Positions 10,210 to 63,968 are shown, numbered from the stretch's first letter. The stretch is 64,000 nucleotides of DNA from Blasia pusilla (GCA_050084515.1 CM114271.1:11036001-11100000); one strand, 5' to 3'. Made by a program: numbers and translations. The notes: generated from the letters alone by a model not told the origin.

Positions 10210-11150
10210 CTGCATTCGTCGAAGGGGGTCCATTCGCTCACTGCGCAGCTCGAGCGGGATTTGCAATCTTGCACTTGCAATGTTGCACCTGTCTGTCGCC
10301 GAAGGAGGTCCATTCGCTCACTGCGCAGCTCGAGCAAGATTTGCAATCTTGCACTTGCAGTGTCGCACCTGTCTGTCGCCGAAGGGGGTCCATTCGCTCA
10401 TTGCGCAGCTCGAGCAGGATTTGCAATCTTGCAGTGTTGCACCTGTCTGTCGCCGAAGGGGGTCCATTCGCTCACTGCGCAGCTCGAGCGGGATTTACAA
10501 TCTTGCAGTGTTGCACCATGCTCGTCGCCGAAGGGTCCATTCGCTCACTGCGCGGATTTCGGCGGGATTTGCAATCTTGCGGTGTTGCACCTGTCATTGC
10601 GAAAGGGTCCATTCGCTCACCGGTATTGCACACCATCGCCGAAGAAGGGTGGGTCCATTCGCTCATCTGCTGCAGCGGCTCGAGCGGGATTTGCAATCTT
10701 GCAGTGTTGCACCTATCTGTCGCCGAAGGGGGTCCATTCGCTCACTCGTGTTGCACCTGTCTGTCGCCGAAGGGGGTCCATTCGCTCACTGCGCAGCTCG
10801 AGCGGGATTTGCAATCTTGCATTGTTGCACCTGTCTGTCGCCGAAGGGGGTCCATTCGCTCACTGGTGTTGCATCTGTCTGTCGCCGAAGGGGGTGGGTC
10901 CATTCGCTCACTGCGCAGCTCGAGCGGGATTTGCAATCTTGCACCTGTCTGTCTTGCTGCTCTTTCATTCGTCGAAGGGGGTCCATTCGCGAAGTTGCTA
11001 CCAAGCCAGACTGTGACACTCCGCAGCTCGAGCGGGATTTGCAATCTTGCAGTGACTTGCACCTGTCTGTCTTGCTGCTCTTTCATTCCAGAGTGTGTCA
11101 CGGCGCAGCTCGAGTGACTCGAGCGTGATTTGCAATCTTGCACTGTCTGT
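10210..11150. repeat. Imperfect tandem array (about 70-bp unit) in the hAT 5' region
   Basis: Recurrent unit GAAGGGGGTCCATTCGCTCACTGCGCAGCTCGAGCGGGATTTGCAATCTTGCAGTGTTGCACCTGTCTGTCGCC, in roughly a dozen full or partial copies. Confidence 0.95.
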
Positions 11151-18979: not shown

Positions 18980-21900
18980 AGTAGGGAAGCTTAATCTTGG
19001 TTAGTCAGTTAAGCGTGATTATCTTAACTAGGGTTAGTTAATCACAATAAGTCTAACTCGAGACTATGGTTAAGGTTAGGGTTAGGGTTAGGGTTGCTTG
19101 TACATACCCTATATAATTGAGAAGGGGACCAACCTCCACTCATTTTCTCATTGCAAATTTCATTCTCCATGATGGTGTGTGAGTGTGAGAGTTATTTCGT
19201 ACCAATTATGTTTCTTTAGCAGTTTTCCATATGATATCACAGCGATAGGAGAACATCATTTGAAATTCTTGTTGTTTGAGAAGAGAAGAGAGGCAAGAGA
19301 AGGCACAATTTCAGTTTGGGAGAAGGAAAATTTATTCAGAGCTTAGTGGGTGCAGATTTCAAGTGGAGCTTTGACGGCGATAAAACTTTGGAGGCGTTTT
19401 TTAAGGCTTTCCCGGTCAATATAGCCATATGGGTCCGTAGTTTCTAGAACGATGCTAGAGGATGGTACTAACCGTCTTGAAAAGCTTGTTGAGAGCTTTC
19501 CAATGCATCCAAAATTGCTCAATTTTTACATTCGGAGCTCATGTAGTAGCAATTTTAGTGTAGGAAAGTGCAATTAGTGAAGAAAAGTGTGCAACTTGCT
19601 CTCTACAAGCCAATTTCGACTAGTTCTTTCATACAATTGATCAATTTTGGCAAATTTCATGTCCATTTCTATGTATGAGTGATCTATGCTTCAATTGGAG
19701 CCATAGAGAGCATGAAATTATATTTTTTGTGAGTAAAATCATTTTTCATGGAGTATTCCTCAACATAAATCATAGGGCAGAAGCTAAGATAGATAAGTAG
19801 AATTACAATTTCGTGAAGTTTCGCATGATATAAAGACAAGTAATCCACTACATTTCAATAACGATTAGTTCGCCGATGATATGTCACGTTCAAGATTTTG
19901 ATATTCCGAAGGAGGCCTCGGATGTTTGGAAAAGCTATTCGAGACATCTACAAAGGCCAAAAAGCGTCAATTGAAACACCAATTGAACAAAGTGAGGAAA
20001 GGATCGCAGAGCATCAATCATTATATTTTGAGTATCAGACATATTTTTGATCAGTTGAATAGCATTGGATTGACAGTAGAAGATAATGATATGATTTTGT
20101 TCACTCTTCAAGGCCTTCCCAAGGATTATAATTCCCTTAAGACCTCTATCTCTATGAGAGAGAAGTATCCAAACTTTCAAGAGTTAGTCTCACCGTTAAT
20201 CAATGAAGAGATGCGACTAGTAGGCAACGGTAGCTTGTCTAGTCTACAAGAGAGTGCGCTATTCGCAGATTATGGATCAAACAAAGGCAGGTGTCGTGGC
20301 AGAAGTTTCCGTGGTCGTGGTGGATATCAAGCATATGGAGGAAGAGACACTCAATATAACGTCACTCAATCAACTACGAAGCAGTTTCAGACACAATCAC
20401 AAGGTGGTGATGGTGAAAACCGTGGGGATCGAGGTCAACAACATTGGGTCCCTAAATCTTGCAATTATTATGGGATAAAGGGTCACTATGCAAAGTTTTG
20501 CTTCAAGAAGAATATAGATATGAGAACATGAGCCTTACAACAACCAAACTATGTGGAGCAACAACACCAAGAGCAATACCAAGAACAAAAACATTTACAA
20601 ACGGATCATCTCTTGGTTATGACTCATCATATGGGAGCAATGGTCAAGAAAGACTCGACAGCAGATTGGTACATTGACTCTAGTGCATCAAATCACGTGA
20701 CCTCACAAGCTAAATGGTTCAATAGTTGGGAGCCGGTGAAAGATCCTGCAATTGTGCTCATAGGAGATGATACTCAATATCATATCACACATACCGGTAA
20801 AGTTCCAATGACATCTAATGGTCTTTGTGCTCTTGGAAATATTCTCTATGTTCCCACCAATGTAAGAAACCAGATCTGTGTAGGACAGATAGTAGAACAG
20901 AGTTATCAAGTGAAGTTTAACGCAGACGGTTATTTTATTGAAACAATGGATGACTAGACTACGATAGCCAAAGGAACTAGATATGGCAGAATGTTCAAAT
21001 TAGATGTTTCTATGCTAGAGATTAAAACAAAAATCTATGGTCAAACCGGCCAACAAGTCACAGATCTAAATGTGTGGCATAAAAGAATTGGACATATGAA
21101 TCTTTAAAGATTATAGAGTCTTTCATCATCTAATACAGTAATAGGACTCCCTAAATTAGCGAGTCCTGCTACATTAGAGGTATGTTCTGCTTGCTAATTT
21201 GGAAAACAAGCTAGATTTCCTATAAAAGCAGGATAGAAGAGCATCTTGGATATTGGAGTTGATCTAGAGTGATGTGTGGACAACATCACAACATAGCCTT
21301 AGTGGTTGCCAGTAATTTATTTCAATTATTAATGACTTCTCTAGGTATATATGGATATACTTTTTGAAATCCAAGTCAGAGGTATTCTCAAGGTTCCAAA
21401 CATTCAGAGTTCTAGTAAAGAAGCAATCTAGATAACACATTCTGAAATTACGTTATGATGGAGGAGGAAAGTATCTTTCAACAGAGTTTGATGACTATTT
21501 ACCTTAGAATGGCATCCAACGTCAAGTGACTTGCCGTTTCTCTCCACAAAAAATGGAGTGGTAAAGAGGAAGAATCGACATATTGCTAAAGTGGCACGAG
21601 CTATGCTGAATCAGAAGAACATGTCTAAGGTGTATTAGGTAGAGGCTGTAGCATGTGCAGTCTTCTTAATCAACCGAACACCAACATCAGGAGTTCATGA
21701 TAAAACCTTATTCAAAGTCTTCATAGGAAGAACACTTGATTTCTCCTTCTTGAAAGTATTTGGCTATATTTGTTATGCTCATGTTCCATTTGACAGACGT
21801 CATAAATTAGACCCCAAGTCTGAAAGATGTATCTTCATTGCCTATGTTGATGGAACTAAGGGGTATAAGTGCTACATTCCATCATGTAGGCAACTTGTTA

Positions 21901-24659
21901 TTAGTCGCGATGTTGTCTTTGAAGAGCTAAAGTCATGGTATGCCCCATCAGAGCCTATTCCATCTCTAAACTTGTCTGTTGAGGGGGTGAATATGATTGT
22001 AAACCAACATACATTATCTTCAACTTCCTCAAGTACTAGTGCAGGATTAGGAGAGGTCTTAGATTCACCAGTTAAATCTGTGAGTCCATGGACGGGAATA
22101 GTACGCAAACAATTAGTTGACATCAGTCAGAGCTCAAGTCAGGTGTTAGAGGCATCCTGTTATGCGCCTACTCTCCTTGAACGTCAATCTCTAGTATTGC
22201 GGAATCGTACGTTCAGTAGGACACGCTCTCATCGCCGATCTGCACCCAAACACTCGTAAGTCGTAAGTCGGGTCTAGGCCAATCGTTCATCCAACCCACC
22301 GAGTCTTCTACTCGCCGTCTCAACAAGCTCACCCTTCCCTACTTCCTAGTTTACAATCATGGCAAGTCCTTCAAGACTTGGAACAAAATTTTTGGTTAGT
22401 CCATGAACCTAAAACGGCACTTGCGCGCCTAGCGGTCCCAACTATTCAACGAACCTCATGCGAGTTCCTAACCGGGACCCAAGTAATTGAGTCCCGGGTT
22501 GGAATCCAAGAGGGATCTCTAAAATTCACCTCAATAGACTTGGTTCAGGTTTTCAAGCCCAACTCCAAACTCCCGATGCGTTCCATGCCCTTGAGCCGCC
22601 CTGTGGCGCCCAAAGTGGGGTTCGAGTCCCAAGCACCCTTAGAGACCTCCCCCTTACTAGTACTTGTGGGGATCTCCACCCTCCCCCTATCTTTGGGAAA
22701 GGATGGTTGGGCCCTTCATTTTGGCCTTCAACCCGATTATACTTACAGTCGTTTTGGGGCCTTTCTCAGCCGCTACTTGTGCGTTTACGGATATCTCTAG
22801 TGCATCTCAATCGGATTTTCATAAGCTTTCCAACGCATTCTTATTTGTCCCAAATAAATCTCCTCACTAAACATTATGGCCAAAAATATAGTCAGAAACT
22901 CCCAAACGCCAGTGGCGTCACAAATTCGGATCACCTTCTTTGGCAACCCACTTCCTAGACTTGAATCCTCTCAAGTCCTGATCCGCGTTTGGTTTAGGTT
23001 TCTCAATCGTGACCACAACACATGAAACGCGAAGCGTCGCTTGCGTTTGAACTCTTGTCTCTTCTCGGAGACCACTCCAACGCGCAAACCATCTTAGCGT
23101 GAGCCCGCTAGTGTTCCGATGTTATGCTTTGGCACTTGTTTGGTCATGAGGGTCACGACACATCTACCTGTGAACAACAACTTTATAGATCAAGAAGATT
23201 TATACATCTAGTTCATAGATTGATAAATGAAGGGTTCCTTGCAACACATAATGCATATATGATGACTACCCTTCAAGAATAGGAGCCGGGTTGTTTTGAA
23301 GAAGTTGCAAGTAAAGTCGAATGGATTGAAGCTATGGAGGAAGAGCTTGTTGCATTAAGACATCAACAGACATGGGAGCTGGTTAATATACCTTCCGATA
23401 AGGAGGATATTGGTTGCAAATGGGTTTACAAAATCAAACGCAATCAAGATGGTACAAGTTACAAATACAAAGCAAGATTGGTGGCTAAAGGCTATGCACA
23501 ACAATATGCCGTCGATTATGAGGAAACGTTTAGCCCTGTTGCAAAGATGGCGACTACGAGAACACTGGTTGCACTTGCAGTAAGTAAGAAGTGCACATTA
23601 TATCACATGGACGTCAAGAATACTTTCTTGAATGGAGATCTATACGATGAGGTATATATGACTCAATCACCTGGATACGAGCATCCAAAGTTTCCATTTT
23701 GCGTATGCAGGTTGAAGAAAGCTTTATACGGGCTCAAACAAGATCCAAGAGTTTGGTATGATAAGATTACATACCTCCTACAAGAGTTGGGTTTTAGGGT
23801 ATGTGATTCTGACTTCTCTATATATGTCTTGAGATGACAAGATCATAAGGTTCTCATTGTGTTGTATGTTGACGATCTCCTGATTACTAGGAATACTGAA
23901 GAAATGGTACAACAAGTCAAGCTTTAGTTACAAACAGAGTTTGATATGAAGGACTTTAAGGAACTCAAGTACTTCCTTGGTATTGAGTTTATCAAGGTTG
24001 GAGAAAGCATGTGGTTATTACAACGATAATATGCTCTTCATATGCTTTCAAAATATGGTATGACGGCTTGTAAGCCAATCTCTACACCGTTGGATCAGAG
24101 TATGAAGCTAAGAGTGGATGAAGGAGAGTTGCTTGCAGATTCTAATATATACAAGAGCATGGTTGGAAGCTTGGTCTATCTAACTATAACCAGGCCAGAT
24201 TTGAGCTATATTGCTGGCCTAGTGAGCCAATTTATGCAAGCACCTCAAAAATCTCACCTTGATGTTGTGAGGAGGATTATGCGGTATGTGAAATTCTCTA
24301 TTCGATTCGGACTTCAATTTGAACCTTCTCTGAGTTTTGAATTATAGGGATTTATGAATGCTGATTGGGCAAGAAGCGTGTCTGATCAACACTCCATATG
24401 TGGTTATTCATTTACTTTGGGAAGTGCAGCTATAAGTAGGGCTTCAAATAAGCAACCTATAGTAGCTTTATCTTCAACACAGGCTGAGTGGAGAGGAGCA
24501 ACCAATAGAGCATGTGAGGCAATGTCGCTTCATCGATTACTTGTTGAGATTGGTGTTAGTAACTTAGGACCTAGTGTAACATATATAGACAATATTAGTG
24601 ACATCAAGCTTGGTAATAACCTTATGTTTCATGCTTGTATAAAGCATGTTAAGGTGCAT
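18980..24659 (+). mobile_element. Degenerate Ty1/copia element (5' LTR about 18980-19229, PBS, gag, PR, INT, RT, RNase H; no 3' LTR)
   Basis: The LTR matches 34539-34778. Motifs: WYIDSSASNH protease, KVFGYICYAH...KLDPKS, GCKWVYKIK...YKARLVAKGY, LYVDD, and ADWA...SSTQAE RNase H. Many stops. Confidence 0.93.
22158..23160 (-). mobile_element. Solo LTR of the chromovirus family seen at 4460-4720
   Basis: TG...CA, 1003 bp, flanks CATCC/CATCT. Its start is the reverse complement of the LTR end at 4695-4720. Confidence 0.88.
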
Positions 24660-26879
24660 TGTAGGACGTATGTAATCTTATCATATCAAGCTCTTGGAGC
24701 TCGTTTCAGCCCGTATAAAGCTTTCTGCAACCTGCACACGCGAAATGGGAAATTTGGATGCTCGTATCCAAGTGGTCATATAAACCTCCTCCTATAGATC
24801 TCCATTCAAGAAGGTATTCTTGACCTCCACGTGATATAATCTGCACTTCTTACTTATTGCAAGTGCAACCAGTGTTCTCGTAGTCGCCATCTTTGCAACA
24901 TGGCTAAATGTTTCCTCATAATCGATGCCATATTGTTGTGCATAGCCTTTAGCCACCAATCTCGCTATATATCTGTTAATTTTACCATCTTGATTGCGCT
25001 TGCTTTTGTAAACTCATTTGCAACCAATAGCTTCCTTGTCATGACCATACAAATTATGTCGTAGAGTATAGTGTGCTAGTAGAGGCCGTACCTTATGTAG
25101 GGCCGTAGTGTCTAGGTAGAGATGCGGTTTCATACATAGGGTTGGGGGTTACTCCATTGAGGGTGACTTTTCTAGTAGGGCCCGCTCTTAGGTTGGAGGA
25201 TATAGTGCAGAGTGCACTCAAAGAACAGTTAGTTCTTTGAGTTGAGCCTGTTGCGTTGGGAGTTAGCCTTGGTAGTGAGTAGAGCTCTTGGCTATGGTGG
25301 TTTCCGCAAGCTTCAACCTGGATTCTCCCATCATGGAGTGGGTTTGGCTCGATTGTATGTGATCTTATACATGTTTTATGATAGAAGGTCTTTCACCGAT
25401 TGCACTCAAAGAACATGAATAGATCGATGGTAGCTTCGATCGTGGATCAAAGGATATAGTTAGGTCTGATTATGTACTCAGTCGTGGATGTTTGTGGCTT
25501 GTGGCCTATGTTGGAGGTGGGAATCTGGTTCGTGGTTGGTTGGAAAAGAAGGGCCTTGTTGAGAGCTTTCTAGCGCCCTTTAGATCACCGGATTTTGTCA
25601 AGGGTGTTGGAAGTTATCAAGGATTGAAGATTCTGGTTCGTGATCGACAGTTTTTTGATGTGGAGAGCTTGGAGCGCGGAAGCTCTGTTGAAGTTCATCC
25701 AGATCGGGTGAGAGGTTCCTGTTGCTACTTGTATTGTGATCTCACGTGAAGCTATCTGCTTGAGTGTGTGGAGCGTTGCGGATTTTTGTGTGCATGAATC
25801 TGGGGGGAAGCGCTGTCAGATTTGCGATTCTGGAGGTGATTGAACAGCAAGTTTGTCTGATTTTTAGCTTGGAGTACAGAGCTCAGTTAAGGCTTCGAGG
25901 TAACTCGTGGTAGCTCGGGGCGAGTGGGCATGAGAGGCGGAGTAAAAGCAAGGAGCAAGCAATCAAGCTTCCTTGCTTGGGCGTGAGGCAATTTTTGCAG
26001 GATTTGTGAGTTGAGTGTTGCATAACTGGTCACCCATCTTTGGGCTATTCTGCTTGGAAGACGCTTAACTGTTGAGTTCTTAACTATGCCAGTAAACACA
26101 CAGGTGTAGCTCATTTGGTGATGTTCGGAGATGTGTTAGGCGCTTTATGCATCTCCGGTTTTTTGTTGATGGACCTCTAGCGCATAATACGCTGTAGCCT
26201 CTTCATGCAGGTGATATTTTTCAGGTGCTGCGAGTGCGACTAGCATGTCATCGACCTCCGGCGGAGTAGCTATTGCATTAGAATTGTGTGGTGGGTTATG
26301 TGGATTTAGGGGGTGCCACGTTTGGTGGATTGTGTTACCTTGATTTCCATTTGCAATTGAAGGATTGACGTTGGACTTCTAGTCCAATGACAACCCTCCA
26401 ATCGTTGCTTCTTTCTTGCGCGCCCATTGTTAGGGTTGACGCTGATTTCCAGAGTAGTTTTACTCTTGTGTGCTACCAGTAGTGAGGCTGGAGTGATGAC
26501 CAGTAGACCGTAGGAGGCTTCCTGTGGTGATGAGAGATTAGGTTGCCTACATCCATAGCTAGCAGAGCTAGAATAGTACAGCGACATCGACGTCACTTGG
26601 TTACTTAGTGGTGGTGATTTGGTGGTGGTGCGGCATCGGCGTTGGTCATCACGGAGCCGACTCGTGGTCTTGTTGGGGACCGTGGTGCGGACAGTGGTGG
26701 TTTTACATGGAGTGGATTGAGGTATCGGCTACCTTTTCCACTTACGACGGTTGATGAAGAGGAGGACGATGGTGTTCCAAACATAGAGTCTTCTACCTTG
26801 TTATCAAGTGTTGCAGCTCCATTCATTTGGGACATGGACGGGATATATGGGGCCATGAAGGGCCCATGATGATACTCGG

Positions 26880-27600
26880 GTGCAGTGGGCACCATTGAGT
26901 GGAGGACTTCATTCAGGAGTTTGATACGTGGTGTGATATGCAGATGTTGCAGAACGCCACGTTGTTTACATCCTTCTTCACTTGGAAGGGGTTGTTTGAG
27001 CATTTGGAGGGACCATCCATGGACGAACACCGTGAGTTTAGGAAGGACCATGTTGTTGAGATTGAGGCGTGGAGACAATATTGGTCTCCGTCCTATGTGT
27101 CTATCATCCATGGTGGTATTGGTAGTAGTGCTCCTACTATGCCCGGACCTGAGCGTTGAGTGAATGCAGTATGAACCGGAGTGGGGGTACCAGTGGAGGT
27201 ACCCATGGAGGTACCAGAGGTAGTACTAGTGGAGGTACTAGTGCCCCACCATCGTTTAGCCCGGTTGCAGAGTTCTTCAAGAGGTCGAAGAAGAACTATC
27301 AGGGAGTGTGAAGATAGAGAAGTTGAGGAGTCTTCAGGAATTTGAGCAAAAGATTGGTGAGAGTCGTTGTGAGGCATACACTCATATGCGACGCTTGATT
27401 TCAGTTACCCAAGATGTGACTGAGGCTCAGGAAGTCCACTTTTGATATAGGATCTTGGACAGAGAGTTACGTGATGCTTCTCTTATGAGTGATGATTCAC
27501 CCACATTAACCCATGTGTTTGCTCTATGTGAGAAGATTGAACTTAACAGGGTGGAGGAGAGAGTGGTGATATCCGCATTCATTAGGGATACAACTACTAC
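26880..27600 (+). pseudogene. gag of the PHD gypsy element (frameshifted)
   Basis: EDFIQEFDTWCDMQ...LFEHLEGP, homologous to gag pieces at 1920-2225, 16115-16378 and 57645-58007. Confidence 0.75.
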
Positions 27601-28137
27601 TTCTCGTGTTCAGTAGTCCACATGACAGTCTCATAGTAATGGTGGTGGTAGTAGTAGTGGGAGTCGTGGGGGGTACACACGACCTCAATCAGGCCCTAGA
27701 GGGACACTTGCGCAGAGACCATTGCCTTCATTTTCTACCCCGCAGCAAGGACAGTCATGTTGGACCTGAATTGTTTTACCTGGATTTTGAGTCTTGGTAT
27801 GGCCGAGCAGCATCAACATTGGACTATGTCTGTGGGTCTTCCATCCCTTGTGATGAGCTCGATGGCTACCGGGACGGTAGAGGCATCGGGTGGGGGCGAG
27901 GAGAGTAGTATTTTGCATCCTTGGAGTAAATGGGATGTAATAGTTGGGCATGTGGAGTTGGTTGCTCATGCTGATGGAGGAGTTATTTGCTCAGATGATG
28001 GTGTAGCTAAGGGTGTACCATCTTGTGAGGGGGTTGCGTAGCAGCCAATGGCGTCGTCCTCTCCCTCAAGTGTGCGAGTGGAGGAAATTTGGGAGCCATT
28101 ACTTGGGCCCCAACTTACAGAAGGTGAGAAATGACGC

Positions 28138-31100
28138 TTGACACAGTTCCTATGTGCTTATAGGAGTTGTTTTGCCTTTAGCATGAAGGAGTTGGGTGCT
28201 TTGGTAGAACACGGTATACGGATTGATTTGGCTTGTGATATGCCAATCTTTCGTCATCCCTACCGATATAGTGATATGGAGAGGGACCTGATTCAGAGTA
28301 GGACATTGGACCTTTTGGAGGCTGGATTAGTGGAGTTGTCGCATGGAGAGTATGCATCAGCCACTATCATGCCTGCTAAAAAGGATGTGCATGGCAACTA
28401 CACGGATAGGTGGACGTGTGGAGATTACCGTCCTATCAATCGGTAGACCAAGGCGGATAGTTATGCCATGCCTACACCTAAGGAGATCTTTGATGTGGTG
28501 GGACATGCAAAGATTTTTAGTAGTTTGGATCTTCGGGCAGGATTCCATCAGTTGCCGATTCGAGAGAGTGACAAGGCCAAGACAACATTTTGGGGTGTCA
28601 ACTCTCATGGCAAGGACTGTTTGTACCAGTGGAAATTCTTACCCTTTGGGTTGAAGAATGCACATGCCGAGTTTCAGAGAGTGATGGACAAGATCCTAGC
28701 AGGGTTAGATTTTGTTCGGTGTTACATTGATGATATCTTGGTTTTCAGTAACACAGTGGAGGAGCATCAGATACATTTGCAGATTGTGTTTGAGCGGTTG
28801 AAAGCTCATGGTCTACGTTTGCATCGAGGAAACTATAAGTTCTTCCATGAGGATGTTGAGTACTTGGGTCATGTGATCTATCCAGGTGGTTTGGGAGTTC
28901 AGCAAGCAAAGGTGGAGGCTAGTGCACTTATTCCTCATCCATTAGATGTGAGTAGAGTTCAAGCATTCATGGGATTGGAAAACTACTATCGGAGGTATGT
29001 GAAGGAATTTAGTGCTATGGCAAAGCCTTTGAACCAATTGCTGAAATCACATCAGGAGTGGCACTGGGGAGATGATCACGAGAGAGCTTTTGTGGAGCTT
29101 AAGGCCCAATTGGTGACGGTGCCTATCTTGAGGAGACCTATTAGAGGGCGCCCATTTTAGTTACACACTGATTGGAGTAGGTTGGGACTTGGAGCGGTAT
29201 TGACACAACATGATGATGAGCACATGGAGTTTGTGGTGGCCTATGCAAGTCGTTTGAACAATGCAGCAGAGTCCCACTATAGTTCATATGAGGGAGAGTG
29301 CTTCGCAGTAGTGTGGGCTGTGGCACACTTTAGGTGTTACTTGTTTGGCACACAGTTTATCCTTGTTACTGATAACCAGCCGCTCAAATGGTTGATGGAG
29401 TCTGACAAGCTTACATGGAAGTTTGCACGGTGGGCTCTTATCTTACAGGAGTATGACTTCTAGGTGGTACATAGACCTGGAGTTGCTAACCTTGATGCTG
29501 ATGGGTTGAGTAGGAACCCATGTACTAGCCAAGAGGATGCAACTGGAGCTAGATGGCATGACGAGGTTGATGAGGAGATGGTGCTAGGTTGGCATGCATC
29601 CGCCTTTTTATGTTGGTTAGGGGTGGACTCTAGTATGGAGGACCACATGACATCTTACTCTACTTAGAGGGTAGATGGCCAACCTTCAAATCCTGAGGTT
29701 GGAGATGGTGGTACGGATCAGCGTGCTATTCATGATGATGCGTTGGTGTTGGAGTTCCTACGTACCAGTAGGGTTCCAGGCATAGTGAGTGCCAAGGAGC
29801 GAGACCGTGTTCTTCAATGTGCTAAGAGGTATCGATTGGAGGGAACACATATTCTCCGTGTGTGGGAGGATGGTAGATCACAAGTAGTGCCGCATTTGGC
29901 TCAGAGAGAGCGCATTGTGCGACATGCCCATGAGGAGTTGGGATATTTTGGGGTAAAGCGTACGTATAGCTTACTCCTTGGTCAGTATTGGTGGCGTGGC
30001 ATGCATACTCAGGTGCATCAATTGGTGTCACGTTGTATGGTTTGTGACAGGGTGAGGGCATCATTCAATGCCCCTACACCACAGTGAGAGGAGCGGTAAG
30101 AGGAGACGAAGAGAGGAGAAAGGAGAGAGGAAGATATTGGCAACCCCTAGGCCTCTTTTGATTTGAAGAGAGTTTCCGACACGTTGAAGAGAGTTTCTGA
30201 CAGTTTGGAGAGAGGAAAGTTTTGACAAGTTGAAAAGGCAAAATTTTTCCAACAAAATTTGGTGGTGAAAAAAAAAATTGAAATTGGTTTTTTTCTCTCT
30301 TTTTTTAACCTTTTCAAGCCGTTAGAAATCCGACGGGTTGAAACTTTTTTTGGTTTTTTTTATGGTTAAGGAAAAAAAATAATTTTTGGGGTTTTTTTAA
30401 CGTTTGCAACCCGTCGGAGTCTGACAGGTCACCATGATGCCTAGAAAGCAACCCGTCGGACTCCGTCGGGTTGCAAATATTTTAAAAAACCCCAAAAAAT
30501 GAAAAATTTTCCTTAACCCCAAAAAAAAAAACCAAAAAATTGCAACCCGTTGGATCCTGACGGGCTGCACTAAGTTTCCTCTCTTCAAAAAAAATCTCCA
30601 AAAAATTTACTCACTTATTATCCATAATCTTCATATTTTTTGAAGAGAGTTTCAGTTTTTGTTTCCCTTTTGTGCCTTTTTTGAAGAGAGACTCTCCTCT
30701 CTTCTGCCTGAATACCAGCCCCCACCACATTGACACCCCTTGCCTATTATGGGGTTGGATTACCGTTGGAGTGTGGATTTTGCGGGACCGTTACCGTTGA
30801 GTGTACGACATCATCGATATATGTTGGTGATGGTGGAGCACTTCTCCAAGTGGATTGAGTTGGTGCCATTACCTGACAAGGCAAGTGAGGGAACGACGTA
30901 TGCGTTTCTTCAAAGAGTGCTTAGTCAGTTTGGTGCACCAGCTGAATTGCTGACCGACAGACAGTCTGAGTTTCAGTGGTGAGTTTTGGTCTTGTGTGAC
31001 AAGGCGTTGATTGATCATCGGACCACGTCTCGAGATCATCCAGAGGCGGATGGTTTGGCTGAGCGTGTGATTGAGACGGTGAAGAGGGCATTACGCAAGT

Positions 31101-31821
31101 ATGGCCTACACAAAGGGCATCTTGGAGACTGGGATATTCAGTAGCCATGGTTAGCCATGGGGTATAGGTTCAGTCGCAAAGCATCCTTGGCTTCCTTCTC
31201 ACCTTATTTTCTATTATACGGCCAAGATCCAGACTTGCCAGCATCAATTCTTCGGGAGTCTAGTGAGGTGGTGAACCTTGATGATCCAGAGATGTGGATG
31301 AGAGTGTGTTCTCAGCGGGCAGAGCTCTTTCGGAGAGTTATGCCAACAGCCTTTGAGAATCTTGCCATTACTCAACACAGGGATATGTTGCGGTATGCAA
31401 CCATTCGGGGTGGAGGTTATCGACCATCGATTCGTAGGTTCCATGCGGGGGACTATGTCTATTTGCAGCAAATTGCCCAACAACGTTGGATGTGACGGCA
31501 AGCGACATTATTTTACGAGTGCGCGAGGTGTTAGCTTTTGGAGTTCTCATGTTGGAGGGTCGTGATGGAGTTGTTTGGAAGGACCATGTGCGTAATTGTG
31601 CGCCATGTCGTCTTCCAAATATGGATGTTACTGTTGACCCAAGCTTAGCCATGATACGTGCTAGCTTGAGGTGTATATTGTGTGGGTTTGCTGATAACGC
31701 AACCCGTATGTTGGTGTGTGATCAATGTTTTAGGGGTTGGCACATGATATGTTTGACTCCACGTATCTATGTTGTTCCTACTGGAAGGTGGGTTTGTCCT
31801 CGATGTACTTCGGAGAGGTAG
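28138..31821 (+). pseudogene. pol: reverse transcriptase, RNase H, integrase, C-terminal PHD finger
   Basis: CGDYRPIN, LDLRAGFHQ, LPFGLKNA and YIDD; RNase H SSYEGEC...LVTDNQPLKW; integrase H..H/C..C region then SVDFAGP, MVEHFSKW, LTD and GLAER; PHD CILC...CDQC...H..C...W.CPRC at about 31672-31806. Confidence 0.95.
30087..30723. mobile_element. Short non-autonomous DNA element inserted in the integrase gene
   Basis: It splits FNAPTPQ/HPLPIMGL. Flanks ACCACAGTG/ACCACATTG (about 9-11 bp duplication, one mismatch). The right end is the reverse complement of the terminus at 59523-59590, and it carries CAACCCGTCGGACTCCG palindromic motifs. Confidence 0.8.
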
Positions 31822-32659
31822 ATGACTTGATCTTTGCATGATATGGTTTACAGATGTGCGACTAACGATGGGGCAACCTAGCACCCGGCCTTCTGATTCG
31901 TGCACCCACAAAGGTGTATAGCATGTAGTAGATGTATAGGGCTACCTGGAAGTTAGAGGGACCTAACCGCCAATTAGGGGGGCCAGTTGTGATACACTTG
32001 TGTTTGTGGATGCTCTCGTCTATGTTATGCATGTAGGTGAGTATGGTATGTCAGCGATGTATGTTGTATGACGATGTGGATTCGCACGACAGCTGTCATG
32101 ACCATGCAGATTATGTCGTAGAGTATAGTGTGCTAGTAGAGGCCGTACCTTATGTAGGGCCGTAGTATGTAGGTAGAGATGCGGTTTCATAAATAGGGTT
32201 GGGGGTTATTCCATTGAGTGTGACTTTTCCAGTAGGGCCCGCTCTTAGGTTGGAGGATATAGTCTGGAGTGCACTCAAAGAACAGTTAGTTCTTTGAGTT
32301 GAGCCTGTTGCGTTGGGAGTTAGCCTTGGTAGTGAGTAGAGCTCTTGGCTATGGTAATTTCCGCAAGCTTTGACGTGGATTCTCCCATCTTGGAGTGGGT
32401 TTGGCTCGATTGTGTTTGATTCTATACGTGTTTTATGAGAGTAGGTCTTTCATGGATTTCAGTTGTGGTACACTTGTGTTTGTGGATGCTCTCGTCTATA
32501 TTATGCATTTAGATGAGTATGGTATGTCAGCGATGTATGTTGTATGATGATGTGGATTCGCACGACATCCTTATCGGAAGGTATTTCAACCAACTCCCAT
32601 GTATGTTGATGTCTTAATGCAGCAAGCTCTTCCTCCACAGCTTCAATCAATAAGAGAGA

Positions 32660-34538: not shown

Positions 34539-36880
34539 TGAAGGGAAGCTTAATCTTGGTAGTCAGTTAAGCGCGATTATCTTAACTAGGGTTAGTTAAT
34601 CACAGTAAGTCTAACTCGAGACTATGGTTAAGGTTGGGATTAGGGTTTCTTGTACGTATCCTATATAATTGAGAAGGGGACCATCCTCCACCCGTTCTCT
34701 CATTGCCCATTTCGTTCTCCATGGTGGTGTATGAGTAAAGTTGTTTCCCACCAGTTATGCTTCTTTAGCAGTTTTCCACATGGTATCAGAGCGATAGGAA
34801 AACATTACTTGAAATTCTTGATGTTCGAGGAGAGAAGAAAGGCAAGAGAAGGCACAATTTCAATTTGGAAGAAGAAAATATTATTTCGAGCTTAAAGGGT
34901 GCAGATTTCAGGTGGAGCTTTGACACTAATAAAACTTTGGAGGCATTTTAAAAGGCTTTCGCGGGCGATTTAGCCATCTGGGTCCGAAATGACTAGAAGG
35001 ATTCCAAAGGCTTATTTGGCTTGTTCTAGCCCTCTTGTAGAAATCATCAAGAGCTTTCCAACGCACCTAAAATCGCTTGATTCTGACATTATGAGCTTGT
35101 AGATGTTGAAACTCCTTCGGAGGAGAGGATTCTGATATTCTGAGCTTATACCAAGAATAACAACATTCACAAACGGAGCATCTCTTGGTTATGACTCATC
35201 ATTTGAGAGAAATGGTCAAGAAAGACTCGACAACAGATTGGTACATTGAATCTGGTGCATCAAATCACATGACCTCACAAGCTAAACGGTTCAGTAGTTT
35301 GGAGCCAGTGAAAGATCCTGCAATTGTGCTGAAAAGATATCACACTCAACATCATATCCCGCATATCTGTAAATTTCCAATAGCATCTAATGGTCTTTTT
35401 GCTCTTGGAAATATTCTCTATGTTCCTACCATTGCAAGAAACTTGATCTCTGTAGGACAGCTAGTAGAACAGGGTTATCAAGTGAAGTTTAACGCAGATG
35501 GTTGTTTCATTGAAACAATAGATGACCACACTATGATAGCCAAAGGAACTAGATATGGTAGAATGTTCAAATTAGATGTTTCTGTGCCAGAGATTCAAAC
35601 AACAATCTATGGTCAAACCGGCCAACAAGTCAAAGATCTAAATGTATGACATAAAAGAATTAGACATATGAATCTTCAAAGATTACAAAGTCTTCCATCA
35701 TCTTATATAGTAATAGGACTTCCTAAATTAGCGAGTCCTGCTAGAGGTATATCATGCTTGCCAATTTGGTAAACAAGCTAGATTTCCTTTTCCAAAGCAA
35801 GGTAGAAGAGCATCCAGGATATTGGAGTTGATCCACAGTGATGTATGAACGGCATCACAACATAGCCTTAGTGGTTGCCAATACTTTATTTCATTTATGA
35901 ATGACTTCTCTAGGTATATATGGGTATACTTTCTGAAAGCCAAGTCTGAGGTATTCTCAATATTCCAACCATTTAGAATTCTAGTAGAGAAGCAAACTAG
36001 ATAACACATTCTGAAATTTCGTTGTGACAAAGGAGGAGAGTATCTTTCAACAGAGTTTGATGACTATTTACGTAAGAATAGCATCCAATGTCAAGTGACT
36101 TGTCGTTGCACTCCACAACAAAATGGAGTGGTTGAGAGGAAGAATCGACATATTTATGAAGCAACACGAGCTATGCTGAATGAGAAGAACATGCCTAAGA
36201 TGTATGGGAAGAGACTGTAGCATGTGTAGTCTTCTTAATCAACCAAACTCCAACAGCAAGAGTTCATGATAAAACCTTATTCAAAGTCTTCATAGGAAGT
36301 ACACGTGATTTCTCCTTCTTGAAAGTATTTGGCTGTATTTGTTATGCCCATTTTCCTTTTGAGAGACGTCATAAATTAGACCCCAAGTCTGAAAGAAGTA
36401 TCTTCATTGGCTATGCTGATGGAATTAAGGGGTATAAGTGCTATATTCCATCCTGTAGGCAACTTATTATTAGTCGCGATGTTGTCTTTAATGAGCGAAA
36501 GTCATGGTATGCTCCATCAGAGCCTATTCCATCTCTAAACTCGTATGTTGAGGGAAAGAATATGACTGTAAACCAACAGACATTGTCTTCAACTTCCCCA
36601 AGTACTAGTGCAGGCTTTGGAGAGATCCTCAATTCATTAGTTAAATCTGTGAGTCCATGGACGAGAAGAGTACGTATTCAATCTGTTGACACTAGTTAGA
36701 GCTTGAGTCAGGTGTCTGAGGCAACTTCCTCTGATGAACAACTTCGTGGATCAAGTAGAGTTACACATCCAGTTCATAGATTCATAAATGAAGGTTTTTT
36801 TTTACACATCATGCATATATGATGACTATCCTTCAAGAACACGAGACGAGTTGTTTTGAAGAAGCTGGAAGTAAAGTCGC
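34539..36880 (+). mobile_element. Second, internally deleted copia copy (LTR, PBS, PR, INT)
   Basis: LTR 34539-34778 and PBS TGGTATCAGAGC at 34781-34792. ORFs 35185-35649 and 36319-36699 parallel 20553-20957 and 21750-22150. gag is missing. Confidence 0.92.
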
Positions 36881-59748: not shown

Positions 59749-62700
59749 TCACTCGTCATCGTCTGAGAGCTCTTCCAGAATTACTCTCGGCCTTGCCCTC
59801 CCAATTTTTGGAATCGTGGGAAGTGACGATGGTGTCACTACCAATGGTGGGTGTGGAACCGGAGCTCTTGGCTTTGGAGGAGAGTTGTACGCCCCAACTA
59901 GCCTGTCGTAATCTGCCTTTGCCTCTTTGCAAAGGTCAAACAGTTGATACCTTCCCTCAAGGTAGAGAATGTTCCTGCCACTTTGCGAGGCGCCTCTAAT
60001 ACGGGTTGCATTTACCCAATGGAGACTTACAATAAATTTGCAACCCGTCGCTTTTAGACGGATTGCACCACCAAAGTCTCCAGCTCAAACAATCCGACGA
60101 GTTGCATGCAGAGATGCAACCCGTCGGAGAAAGACAATTTGGATACGGATTTAGAGCCCTTACCCGAATTTGACTCATCGCGGATCGGAGTGGGTACTCG
60201 TTCTTGATGACCCACAATTGCATTGTCCTCCACTTCAATGACCTCTTGACGCACTGGAGGATGAAGAGCTCGTTCTGGCTCCCTCTAGTCAAAACTAAGA
60301 GACATCCCCTGTCACTGAGATAGGCGTCTGCAAAGGAAAATAGGAGCGTGATCTGATCATGAGAAAGAGGGACATTCCAATATGGGACCCCGTTGGACGG
60401 ATTCTCGTCCCACAAGCGCAACCCCGAGGGAAAATCAGCGACGAGGAGATCCACCGCCACATCTTTGACCTCCCCATGGACCGTCCAGGGAGCGTGCCCA
60501 TTTTGTTGAAGCTTCCGTCCCAGCGTTGCCAATTTCTCGATGGCGGGTGTCGACACTTGTGAACTGAAACTTTTCAGCTCATCCAGAAGATTACTGCACT
60601 GAATGATGACGCTTGTCCGGGTCATTGTTTCTCTATGTCTTCCCAAGGATGATGGAGTGTATTCCACATCCTGGTCTGCTCCCTAGGACAACCCTGGGGC
60701 CTCTCGCTTCCGCTTCTCCCGAGTCTGCGGTCGGCTTGTTGGGGTCTCTATTACCACAGACTCTGATGGAGTTTTTTTTGCGGAGGACCTGGTCCGACCC
60801 TCTCTCCCTGCTCGCCCGGACGATTCTGCCTCTCGGCTTGAATTCTCAGCCTCTCTTTGGGAAGACTCGGCCTCGGAATTCTTCGATCCCCTCACCTTGG
60901 CTTTGAGACCCGGTGTAGATTTGTCCTTGGCAGTGACGACCTTGGACACCAACTCCGCTGTCTTGAGGGCTTGCTCCTCCGCATCTCCTTCAAAAAAGTC
61001 TTCATCCTGCACAAAATTGGGGATGTCATCCCTACTTGCGGTCACTGCATCATAGAGCAGGCGTAGATTTTCTCGGTTATGTCCTCAGGGTCGTTAAAGT
61101 CCAGCCAGATCGGGCAATTCTCCACCTCTGAGTCGGACATGCTTTGAGCCATTTCCATGTCGTACATGGAAAATGTCTCTCCATCAGGCGGAGAAGTCCA
61201 CAGTTTGCAGGCTGCCAATATTTTTCGCCATGTACCTACATTCTTACAATGGATGAGATACCTGAACACCATCCGTTGGGCAACTCTTAGTCGAGATGCA
61301 TCGGCCGCCTGCTCCTGAAGATCTCGCTTCTTCTTTTCGAAATCCCTTTTCTTCGCCTCTATTTCTTCATCAATGTCTGCCTGAGGGAGGATGCGATCCT
61401 TGAACATTGTCATGAAGCCTAGGTTTTTTATGGGCTTGTCTCGCATGTCATCAAGCCAAAGTTCAAAATCTTCAGCACTCTCCAGGTTTACTTCCTCCGG
61501 AACTGGCTCTATTCTTTTCAACTCCGCTTGGAGACCCACGAGCATGGACTTCCCAAGAAGCTGCAACGCGTCCCACCATGACCATTCACGGAGCCAGTGG
61601 GAGATCACTGGATCAGAGACACCCGGAGGATGGCGTGCCGCCCTCTTTTGGGCCTCTATGCCCTCCAGACTGATTTTCATCGGTCGGATTCTCCTAAATT
61701 CTGAAATTTAGGACAAGGCAAATCGATGGACGCGGTCAAGAGACACTTTCTCCCCAATCCGACCCTGCGGATCTTCATCCCTCTTCCACTGGCGCTTGAT
61801 TATTGCCTTCAGCTCCTTGTAGAAATCGAGGCCAAGTTCTGGGTTGAGAATGGCGATGTAGCACTGCATCTTGCTTGCCGTGTACTTCGTAGCTGCAGAT
61901 ACTGCAGCTTGGATGAATTTAGCACGCCGGATTACGACACTTTCTCCCTCCGCTCCAGCTCCAATGCAACGCTCTTCTTGGTGGCCTGTATCTTCGACCA
62001 ACAAAGGATTGTCACGGCTGCATCTTGGGAAATAAATGTATTTGCCCAAGTCTTTTTTTTTATTTGAGCACCCTTTGCCAGCATTTACAAGGACGTCGCC
62101 CAAGAATCCCTTGTACTCTGCCGGGTGCGTCGTTAGCACTTTCTTCATGCGATTGCAATCCTGGATCCAGTGGTGGGTGACATTCCCCTCCGATGCAATC
62201 CTGCACATCCAAACTCAATATCATAATTTTTGCAAGCTACATGGGTTCCTGCAACCCGTCAGACTCTGACAGGTTGTCACAGCTCATGGTCGGAATGGTT
62301 GCTACGAGCTAAATTTTGCAACCCATCGGAGTCCGACGGATTGCATTCAGATTTGTGATTTCCTGGTTTCAACCCGTCAGACTCCGACAGGTTGTCAGAT
62401 AGTTTGTATTAAGAGAGTTGTTTCCGCGAGAAAAGTGAACATATCAACCCGTCGGAGTCCGACAGGTTGCGCAATTTCAATTAAAGCTGCAATTCGATGC
62501 CAAAAATCAAACTCCCCTACTCCGATTACCTTCTTGTGTCGGTGAATGCAACCTTTCGGACTCCGACGAGTTGCTTTCAGCCAAAAACATCAAAAAATAA
62601 CGACCAGTCAAGCAACTCGTCGAACTCCGACGAGTTGCTTTCTTCCAAAAACATCCAAAAATAGCAGCCAGTCAAGCAACTCGTCGGACTCCAACGAGTT

Positions 62701-63968
62701 GCTTTCGGCCAAAAACATCCTATACCATTGGTCAGTCGAACAACTCGTCGGACTCCGACGAGTTGCTTTCGGCCAAAAACATCCAAAAACACCGGCCAGT
62801 CGAGCAACTCGTCAGACTTCGATGAGTTGCTTTCGGCCAAAAACATCCTAAAGCAGTGGTCAGTCGAACAACTCGTCGGACTCCGACGAGTTGCTTTCGG
62901 CCAAAAACATCCTAAAATAGCGGCCAGTCAAGCAACTTGTCGGACTCCGACGAGTTGCTTTTGGCCAAAAACATGCCAAAAATAGTGGAGAGTCAAACAA
63001 GTTGTCGGAGTCCGACGGTTTGCGGCAAGAGGAAACTTACGTGTTCATGGCATGCATTGCCATCTCCATCGTTGCCATGTGATGAGGGTATGGATGTAGC
63101 ACGACTGCCTTCATGCAAAAATGCGCCTCCAATGAGTTTGGGCGCTCCTCTCTAAACTGGGTCCACGCCATGAACCTGTGGTTTCCATCCCACATGAAGA
63201 AATACAAGTTCCGCATCCAACTGAATTCCGTCCCCTCAATCGCCCTTCTGAATTCCTGATCTCTCATCCTCCAGAATGTGTCGAGCGCTTCCAAGTCCTC
63301 CTCCGTAACCAGCGCTTAGGTTCCATGTTCATCGTAAGGCTGAACATAGAATAGAGTGAAGCTGTTGATGTAGGATGTTGTCGATGCCGATTGTTTCAGC
63401 TTCGCAATATCCTCGTTAGACTGAATTTTGCACACGTACTCCATTGTCCGCAATCGGCAAAGTGGAATTCTCAAGGCGTTCTGGCCCTCCATCAGGGACA
63501 AGTTCAATAAACTACATTGAATTGCCAATGAATTGCAACATGGCCCTTCACATAACTCAAAGATGCAAGATCGTTTCTTACCCACTCGAAGATTGGGTTG
63601 ATGTCTTGGCCAGCCAAGTGCTCTGGGACAGTAGTTGGCAAGTCCACTGGAAACTTGTCGATCCGATAGAGGTTGATTTCTTCCGCCAGGCTAAGAGACG
63701 AGGAAGACCGCTCTCCTGCTTCTTCAGCGATGTCCACCATCTCCACGCTGGGGGTCCTCATGACCTCATGGTCAGTCACTCGAACTTCGTCCGTTTCTGC
63801 TATATTGATTGTGTCCCCGGACTTCATCGGGGATATTTCCTGCATCTCAACACTTTTGGTTGGACGGGCCGCGCTTTCTTCAATGGCAATCGCTTTTTCC
63901 CTTCGAGCTTTTGCCAATTCTGCTCTCCTCACCGATGCGTCCATTCGCCTTCTTAACACGTTTTGCAA
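59749..63968 (-). pseudogene. Spliced gene: ParB-like domain plus amino-methyltransferase-like domain
   Basis: Collinear ORFs separated by single in-frame stops (63316, 61708, 60683) or frameshifts. An in-frame GT-AG intron spans about 63038-62201. Motifs: FFMWDGNHRFMAW; VDLLVADFPSG...VPYWN...FADAYLSDRGCLLV; last exon IRGASQSGRNILYLEG. Confidence 0.65.
62548..63023. repeat. Intronic tandem array, 64-bp unit, about 7.5 copies, each with a 27-bp palindrome
   Basis: GCAACTCGTCGGACTCCGACGAGTTGC followed by TTTCGGCCAAAAACATC and a more variable 20 bp. Unit starts at 62548, 62612, 62676 and onward. Confidence 0.95.

Follow-up and report, generated by a model that had tools for sequence, protein, structure and literature searches.

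The locus and its split repeats

The window analyzed here, i.e., the whole stretch of 64,000 nucleotides (nt) from Blasia pusilla (GCA_050084515.1 CM114271.1:11036001-11100000), by whose numbering all coordinates are given, holds at 25037-32567 an element whose terminal repeats are split and permuted: repeat A1 is followed by about 6.6 kb of internal sequence and then by B1, a dinucleotide gc (32092-32093), A2 and B2. By its protein content, this element is a DDE-integrase retrotransposon of the Ty3/gypsy type; it splits the reverse transcriptase (RT) of a copia element, and its integrated ends lie inside the long terminal repeat (LTR) of reverse transcription, at the two halves of a palindrome. 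The features defining its limits are as follows.

25033-25036, plus strand: left copy of the 4-bp duplication TCCT (empty-site joints in runs X1, X3 and X6)
25037-25401, plus strand: repeat A1, beginning TGTCATG, which shares about 93% identity with A2 and forms the 3′ portion of the LTR of reverse transcription, including a putative promoter, repeated region (R) and unique 5′ region (U5)
31984-32091, plus strand: repeat B1, ending CACGACA, 95% identical to B2 over 108 bp, which forms the 5′ portion of the LTR of reverse transcription
32088-32097, no strand: palindrome GACA-gc-TGTC at the B1/A2 junction, conserved in relatives; proposed integrase recognition and cleavage site
32094-32458, plus strand: repeat A2, beginning TGTCATG (repeat comparison)
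32459-32460, plus strand: A2-B2 joint, a primer-defined LTR end on a primer-defined LTR start (the T at 32459 is ambiguous)
32460-32567, plus strand: repeat B2, ending CACGACA; right terminus (repeat comparison)
32568-32571, plus strand: right copy of the duplication TCCT (flank comparison)
24795-25013, minus strand: host copia reverse transcriptase RVT_2, split by the insertion (Pfam E 3.5e-16)
23321-23783, minus strand: inverted paralogue of the split copia segment, which acts as an empty site with one unbroken TCCTT

That these insertion limits are real follows from the TCCT on both sides, from the uninterrupted paralogue and from public-run contigs in which 25032 is joined straight to 32568 (one contig in X1, four in X3 and two in X6; here and below, such counts are among the joints listed, and bin depths do not equal copy numbers). 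The members of the A pair, whose match was extended to 368 bp by BLAST, and those of the B pair have diverged alike (93% vs. 95% identity), no further copies of A or B were found in the 64-kb window, and both outer ends of the element together make up GACAGCTGTC (32088-32097), a palindrome of 10 bp without mismatch.

A sequence-only reading of the window had already described a DDE-integrase gypsy element in the order A...B-A-B, which repeat mapping and domain matches bear out, and had placed its outer ends at TGTCATG and CACGACA within a TCCT duplication that restores the copia RT, with which both the paralogue and the public-run empty sites agree; the perfect palindrome that it saw at the B1/A2 junction, equal to both outer ends joined, is likewise found at 32088-32097. 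The details of the spacers needed amending: gc stands, whereas the gt proposed between A2 and B2 belongs to B, leaving at most the one ambiguous T (32459), and B itself, given as 104 bp, has homology starting 4 nt earlier (CAGT...) and thus measures 108 bp.

Repeat order across the lineage

Relatives were sought with a 127-amino acid (aa) piece of the integrase C-terminus that includes a PHD finger, and 630 protein clusters, among 1.8 billion representatives, match this piece at E<=1e-10. An alignment of five sequences of the PHD piece recovered 80 related loci from metagenome contigs (48-73% identity to the window piece), onto all of which the A and B sequences were mapped, with A queries taken solely from loci showing B-A-B. 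At least one large genome contains the family in great abundance (145,753 contigs matched in run X1), with small shares in air metagenomes and in two other organisms; a search of viral contigs with the PHD piece found no relative, and a 21-nt hairpin motif gave 0 matches in metagenome contigs. With NN standing for the two-nucleotide spacer, and an independent insertion being one judged so by eye from its 3′ flank, the 3′ ends of the 80 loci fall into the following forms.

Polypurine tract, then B-NN-A-B: 30/80 loci, 17 independent insertions
B-A, about 835 bp, B: 2/80 loci, 1 independent insertion
B-A, then other sequence or contig end: 3/80 loci
Single B, then unrelated sequence (the short form A...B): 25/80 loci, 16 independent insertions
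Partial B: 5/80 loci
No match to the A/B queries (other families or short contigs): 15/80 loci

The contigs of L037 and L040, which represent an intact family, end within or shortly after A2, which places these two loci outside the form classes. In L008 (1577-2411; the same in L013), the roughly 835 bp between A2 and B2, with tandem repeats past B2, could be either an insertion or a longer variant of A.

The whole order A1...B1-NN-A2-B2 was recovered from L026 and L035, and the complete short form from L010, L011, L024, L047 and L077, which, together with the window copy, allows eight independent 5′ ends to be compared (window, L010, L011/L012, L024, L026, L035, L047 and L077). At all eight, the 5′ end consists of A alone, and B-A was found at none of them. 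Two complete identical terminal LTRs, the Ty3/gypsy norm, are therefore not what these copies have, the 5′ end carrying only A and the 3′ end either B-NN-A-B or B. Copies of the short form tend to have diverged further from the family majority than those of the long form (median 8.9% for A...B vs. 6.0% for the long form, from 10 and 9 near-family copies, respectively), but the difference is not significant (Mann-Whitney p 0.13).

The termini are equally constant, as the mapped copies all begin with TGTC (decayed variant TATC) and end with GACA (variants AACA and GATA), and a perfect 4-bp duplication flanks six of the eight complete copies.

Window: TCCT
L010: TGTT
L011: ACTA
L024: ATTA
L026: AAGG
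L077: CGTA
L035: 3/4 bases match
L047: no match

The duplication of the window copy is taken as 4 bp, despite an ambiguous fifth base T, because the relatives fix this length; a 5-bp duplication (TCCTT) was considered for it and rejected, given that six relatives and the window fit 4 bp and that L026 excludes 5 bp. The palindrome at the B/A junction is kept in relatives as [G/A]A[C/T]A-NN-T[G/A]T[C/T], with a 2-nt spacer that is free to vary (gc, at, ac or gt), and even the family of L037 and L040, at about 51% aa identity, still has the junction ...CACGACA gt/gc TGTCACG...

Priming sites and the LTR of reverse transcription

Where an LTR begins and ends for the purposes of reverse transcription is set by the places at which the two strands are primed, and candidates for both were found at the borders of the repeats.

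31976-31983, plus strand: polypurine tract AGGGGGG (31976-31982) plus 1 nt, adjoining B1; conserved in relatives
25216-25242, plus strand: hairpin inside A, with arm ACTCAAAGAAC, loop AGTTA and arm GTTCTTTGAGT, from an inverted-repeat search; the latter arm (25232-25242) would act as self-primer and be the transcript 5′ end
25404-25414, plus strand: putative self-priming primer binding site ACTCAAAGAAC, 2 nt past A1; 11-nt complement of 25232-25242

A G-run (>=4 G within 15 nt) precedes B1 in 28 of 30 loci and B2 in none of the 30, and it is because this plus-strand priming G-run adjoins B1 that the start of B is taken as the start of the LTR. At the other border, a complement as long as the 11 nt of the window priming site was reached in 1 of 300 shuffles, and a minimum free energy fold pairs the second hairpin arm with the priming site. 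In six of the eight copies, the site after A1 is perfectly complementary, over 9-14 nt, to sequence located 158-195 nt into A (11 nt in the window; 9-14 nt in L010, L011, L024 and L026), with the distant L047, one of the six, using another pair of 13 nt, AATCACCAAAAGT against ACTTTTGGTGATT; the complement is missing in L035 and L077, both of which are decayed there. A hairpin lies 149-204 nt from the start of A in 24 of 35 A sequences, and its stem covaries, being CAAAGAAC/GTTCTTTG in near families and CAAATCAC/GTGATTTG in far ones.

Judged by this complementarity, the priming site appears to be a self-primer and not a transfer RNA site, the pattern matching the signature of Tf1-like self-priming, for which the Tf1 match is 11 nt. 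As the polypurine tract adjoins B and the priming site adjoins A, the reverse-transcription LTR is B-NN-A, within which both integrated ends fall; the B-gc-A of the sequence-only reading, with the ends inside it, thus holds, on the strength of the G-run at B1 (28/30) and of the priming site at A.

The A2-B2 joint and aberrant copies

It follows that the A2-B2 joint sets a primer-defined LTR end on a primer-defined LTR start, to the nucleotide, and it is mostly precise in relatives. Since ordinary reverse transcription would not make such a joint, it points to two LTRs joined head to tail. At L018 (2640-2700), the joint carries a 16-nt filler repeating nearby A sequence, together with 4 extra nt on the B (polypurine) side, and this filler resembles those of imprecise end joints.

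Another locus, L003 (3246-3880; L004 is the same locus), reads B-gc-A, priming site, reverse complement of A[1 to ~195], ...GGTCATGACA and flank, which, going by the order of its parts, looks like plus-strand strong-stop DNA that had snapped back on the primer hairpin and was then integrated. This copy shows a product in which A is followed by the primer binding site (A-PBS), and it also shows that half of the palindrome serves as an end irrespective of its position.

Coding capacity

The window copy itself is dead, with several frameshifts and stops, and the following parts of its coding sequence were recognized.

28447-29463, plus strand: RVT_1 and RT_RNaseH, two open reading frame (ORF) pieces (E 2.2e-26 and 1.7e-32)
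29668-30083, plus strand: Integrase_H2C2, the integrase N-terminal zinc-binding domain (E 3.6e-15)
30084-30731, no strand: insertion of about 650 bp nested in the element but foreign to it, which contains inverted repeats and is lacking in other copies
30734-31150, plus strand: rve, the integrase catalytic core, with D, D-35-E kept and one in-frame stop (E 2.2e-11)
31438-31821, plus strand: integrase C-terminal region with a PHD finger (about 31672-31806; PHD E 7.8e-10), then a stop codon

The order RT - RNase H - integrase seen in the window ORF pieces is also that of the relatives P0005, P0027, P0041 and P0021. The intact relative P0005, in which DD35E is unbroken, has Ty3 Gag-Pol (7q5b, E 2e-94) as its best match among solved structures, with further matches to the Ty3 RT (4ol8, E 1.5e-72) and to the integrase of prototype foamy virus (PFV; E 6e-18). 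No tyrosine recombinase (Phage_integrase) was found in the 20 window ORFs of >=80 aa on both strands, nor in the polyproteins of five relatives.

In both the window element and its relatives, a C-terminal PHD finger stands where a chromodomain would. The nearest solved relative of this finger (P0005 residues 1019-1070) is the PHD domain of ATXR5 (E 2.6e-13), which reads the histone H3 tail, and, by analogy with the chromodomains of chromoviruses, the finger may guide target choice. A C5 DNA methylase domain gave tblastn matches in 27 of 80 loci (Pfam-confirmed in L040, L037, P0013 and P0041) and no tblastn match in the window copy. Its placement varies, as it lies upstream of the RT in L040 (3850-4749) and L037 (3419-4327) and between RNase H and integrase in P0041 and P0013, which suggests domain shuffling or separate captures.

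As for the nested insert, joints free of it (30077-30084 to 30731-30738) occur in runs X1, X3, X6 and X12, and, with its short terminal inverted repeats GAGAGGAG...CTCCTCTC, it resembles a miniature inverted-repeat transposable element. Rearranged elements also form a nest around the window element, where long direct repeats (18983-23319 and 34542-36879; 81-88% identical, in three blocks) bracket the region of the gypsy element and the copia fragment, and self-comparison of the window also revealed tandem-repeat arrays at 10216-11088 and 62548-63023.

A proposed route of integration and its alternatives

The route that we propose would run as follows. Plus-strand synthesis would be primed at the G-rich polypurine tract directly before B, and minus-strand synthesis after A by the 5′ end of the transcript itself, as in Tf1, giving complementary DNA (cDNA) with B-NN-A as its LTR. 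The integrase would then bypass the LTR ends and use the palindrome of the unique 3′ region (U3), cutting after each CA, and such cuts would leave recessed CA-3′OH ends with 2-nt 5′ overhangs, which are the usual substrate of strand transfer. It must presumably act there because the integrated ends are the palindrome halves with a 4-bp duplication, and cuts after each CA would have every integrated copy begin with TGTC (of A), end with GACA (of B) and bear such a duplication. A molecule with two LTRs in head-to-tail junction, be it a 2-LTR circle or a concatemer, would give A...B-NN-A-B when opened at the palindrome. This long form would be the one that replicates, as it alone has a 5′ promoter/R/U5 plus a complete 3′ LTR, whereas A...B, which is without a 3′ R, would be unable to do so; the short form might stem from a 1-LTR circle, from cutting of linear cDNA at both palindromes or from a later deletion between two copies of B. 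Only insertions exceeding one genome length (A...B-A-B) would, then, make terminally redundant RNA, much as over-length pararetrovirus clones do.

That the integrase cuts the conserved GACA-NN-TGTC palindrome within the U3 of LTR-LTR-joined (circular or concatemeric) cDNA is, in our judgment, probable. The far broader statement that a large gypsy lineage with DDE integrases depends for its integration entirely on circular or LTR-LTR-joined cDNA, opened at a built-in U3 palindrome by a 2-nt staggered cut in the manner of IS3-type transposases at circle junctions, with the DIRS-like split repeats as a convergent by-product, is one that we advance tentatively, as something conceivable that still falls somewhat short of an even chance. 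Integration from circles was once proposed for retroviruses and later rejected. The sequence-only reading had suggested a 2-LTR circle cut at GACA/gc/TGTC, for which the A2-B2 joint, being the expected circle junction, speaks in favor, whereas the product A-B-NN-A...B is unseen; the short A...B form, this unseen product and an apparent self-primer in place of a transfer RNA site all go beyond that model.

A number of observations weigh against the proposed route. A 2-LTR circle has two identical palindromes, whose random opening should yield A-B-NN-A...B as often as the long form, and that arrangement was found at 0 of the 8 independent 5′ ends, although, with only three long-form copies among these (3/8), its absence is weak evidence; it is over this arrangement that the circle model and the over-long linear one part ways. 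The short form makes up about half of the related insertions and has good 4-bp duplications, the flanks of L047 show no duplication, and A1 was not found in 12 of the 18 loci with >=9 kb upstream; some of the latter absences reflect the limits of the queries, because these came only from B-A-B loci and did not reach some families. The circle is something we infer from integrated copies, the putative transcript 5′ end was placed at the hairpin arm by complementarity, and the relatives all come from few metagenomes, possibly from few host species.

Some of these observations would be accommodated if no circle were involved at all, with the integrase acting on the two palindromes of linear cDNA (B-A-internal-B-A) and inserting the piece between them, which would mainly give A...B, while the long form would come from over-long cDNA made by end-to-end template switching. 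This would account for the unseen A-B-A...B (0/8) and for A...B with perfect 4-bp duplications being as common as the long form (16 vs. 17-18 independent insertions), and L003/L004, stemming from an aberrant and probably linear cDNA, does have half of the palindrome as its right end. The main product would, however, be one that cannot replicate for want of a 3′ R, leaving the lineage to live on a rare side product, and yet it is large (630 clusters, E<=1e-10); the clean A2-B2 joint of primer-defined ends fits ligation as well as template switching; and cuts about 110 and about 365 bp inside the linear ends would be needed, while we know of no integrase that cuts endonucleolytically at such distances inside linear ends. 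A purely linear route seems unlikely to us. More doubtful again is a DIRS-like replication, in which the split repeats would bridge the cDNA ends, as has been proposed for DIRS/PAT/Ngaro elements, B1-A2 would be the internal complementary region and a DDE integrase would merely have replaced the tyrosine recombinase. The order A1...B1-A2-B2 is indeed that of PAT/Ngaro-type elements, and a figure legend of de Mendoza et al. (2018) uses the term DIRS-like for it; against this, the polypurine tract adjoins B1 and the putative self-priming site adjoins A1, as in LTR elements, the snap-back copy L003/L004 carries the A-PBS, a plus-strand strong-stop product, and the RT/RNase H is best matched by Ty3. 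A tyrosine recombinase domain was, moreover, found neither in the 20 window ORFs nor in the polyproteins of the five relatives, and 4-bp duplications are present, whereas elements with tyrosine recombinases are not expected to duplicate their target.

Two further explanations would do away with any unusual integration. If the true LTR were A-B (TGTC...GACA), A2-B2 would be a complete one, and the coding region would have parted a 5′ LTR into A1 and B1; A2-B2 does have TG...CA ends, and B1-gc-A2 resembles an LTR-LTR junction, but the polypurine tract would then precede B and not A, and the priming site follow A and not B, in every family, and reverse transcription could presumably not regenerate such a structure, making this highly improbable. 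Hardly credible, lastly, is a one-off rearrangement or misassembly of an ordinary two-LTR gypsy copy, for which it may be said that the window has a single copy, old and broken: related loci show the same order in 17 independent insertions, two more complete copies have it as well, the start of A1 and the end of B2 coincide exactly with the duplication and the empty site, and no related copy has B before its 5′ A. The sequence-only reading would have given way to precisely such an explanation had most intact copies shown two complete LTRs, and instead the 17 independent B-NN-A-B insertions and the eight 5′ ends of A alone uphold it on this point.

Comparison with known elements

The arrangement is not without precedent in Ty3/gypsy elements, contrary to what the sequence-only reading had supposed: KnitGypsy-Dnmt3 of Klebsormidium nitens is described, in the Fig. 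4c legend of de Mendoza et al. 2018 (Nat Commun 9:1341, PMC5890265), as having gypsy domains and DIRS-like A-coding-B-A-B repeats. The passages dealing with KnitGypsy-Dnmt3 there say nothing of a palindrome, a duplication, priming sites, a short form or a mechanism (PMC5890265). The window element shares its gypsy domains and its A-coding-B-A-B order, the two being matched by the description in the legend, and differs in that the window copy is without a Dnmt3-type C5 methyltransferase domain; a C5 DNA methylase domain, present in many of the relatives, ties the lineage to KnitGypsy-Dnmt3. Among literature searched mostly at the level of titles and abstract openings, no other account of split repeats in integrase-bearing elements, or of a gypsy integrase bearing a PHD finger, was found.

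Split direct repeats of the form A1...B1-A2-B2 are shared with PAT, Ngaro and DIRS elements, including TOC1, which a passage of PMC9940879 calls a non-autonomous DIRS. Unlike these, the window element has a DDE integrase, with no tyrosine recombinase found, as well as TG...CA ends, a 4-bp duplication and a Ty3-type RT/RNase H, and its repeats are bordered by a polypurine tract and a priming site. Neumann et al. 2019 (PMC6317226) treat self-priming as established in Tf1 and as a prediction for the Tcn1 elements of plants, and, as in Tf1/sushi and Tcn1, a site past the LTR is here complementary (9-14 nt) to a stretch of the LTR that is possibly the transcript 5′ end; unlike those chromoviruses, the window element has a PHD finger instead of a chromodomain and integrated ends that lie inside the LTR.

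As for the proposed cleavage, the integrases of foamy virus and HIV-1 cleave the palindromic junction of 2-LTR circles, as stated in the portions of PMC1180852 and PMC1905944 that concern it. The likeness would consist in a retroviral-type integrase turning an internal palindrome of abutted ends into integration-ready ends, with the cleavage being one that we infer in the present case. In foamy virus and HIV-1, however, the palindrome arises by the joining of LTR ends and belongs to a side path, whereas in the window lineage it is built into U3, is copied in each cycle and is apparently the sole site, with a CA-TG gap of 2 nt. The DDE enzymes of bacterial insertion sequences of the IS3/IS911 type, which belong to the same superfamily, act on abutted inverted ends, a few bp apart, in a circular intermediate; these, unlike the window lineage, are DNA transposons without reverse transcription, whose junction is formed anew each cycle. 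With canonical Ty3/gypsy elements, the window element has in common the RT-RNase H-integrase order, a DD35E integrase with an HHCC zinc domain, Ty3 as the best solved match, TG...CA ends, a target duplication within the 4-6 bp usual for them and a polypurine tract, and it differs from them in having no complete LTR pair, its 5′ end being A only and its 3′ end an LTR plus an extra B.

Implications

To our knowledge, the well-studied retroviral-type integrases all insert linear cDNA by trimming its ends, and circles are regarded as dead ends. Within the literature searched, the arrangement itself has been noted once in print, and what is new is the palindromic site with its conservation, together with the duplications of 4 bp, the apparent self-priming, the existence of two integrated forms and the snap-back copy. 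Finders of LTR elements that need two LTRs, TG/CA ends and a flanking duplication (as used in the survey of PMC6317226, going by its description there) should either miss such elements or set their bounds wrongly. If the proposed route is true, this natural and species-rich lineage, with an internal palindrome at the ends of all its insertions, would contradict the linear-end rule in a way open to laboratory tests, and it would account for the origin of DIRS-like split repeats in elements that have no tyrosine recombinase.

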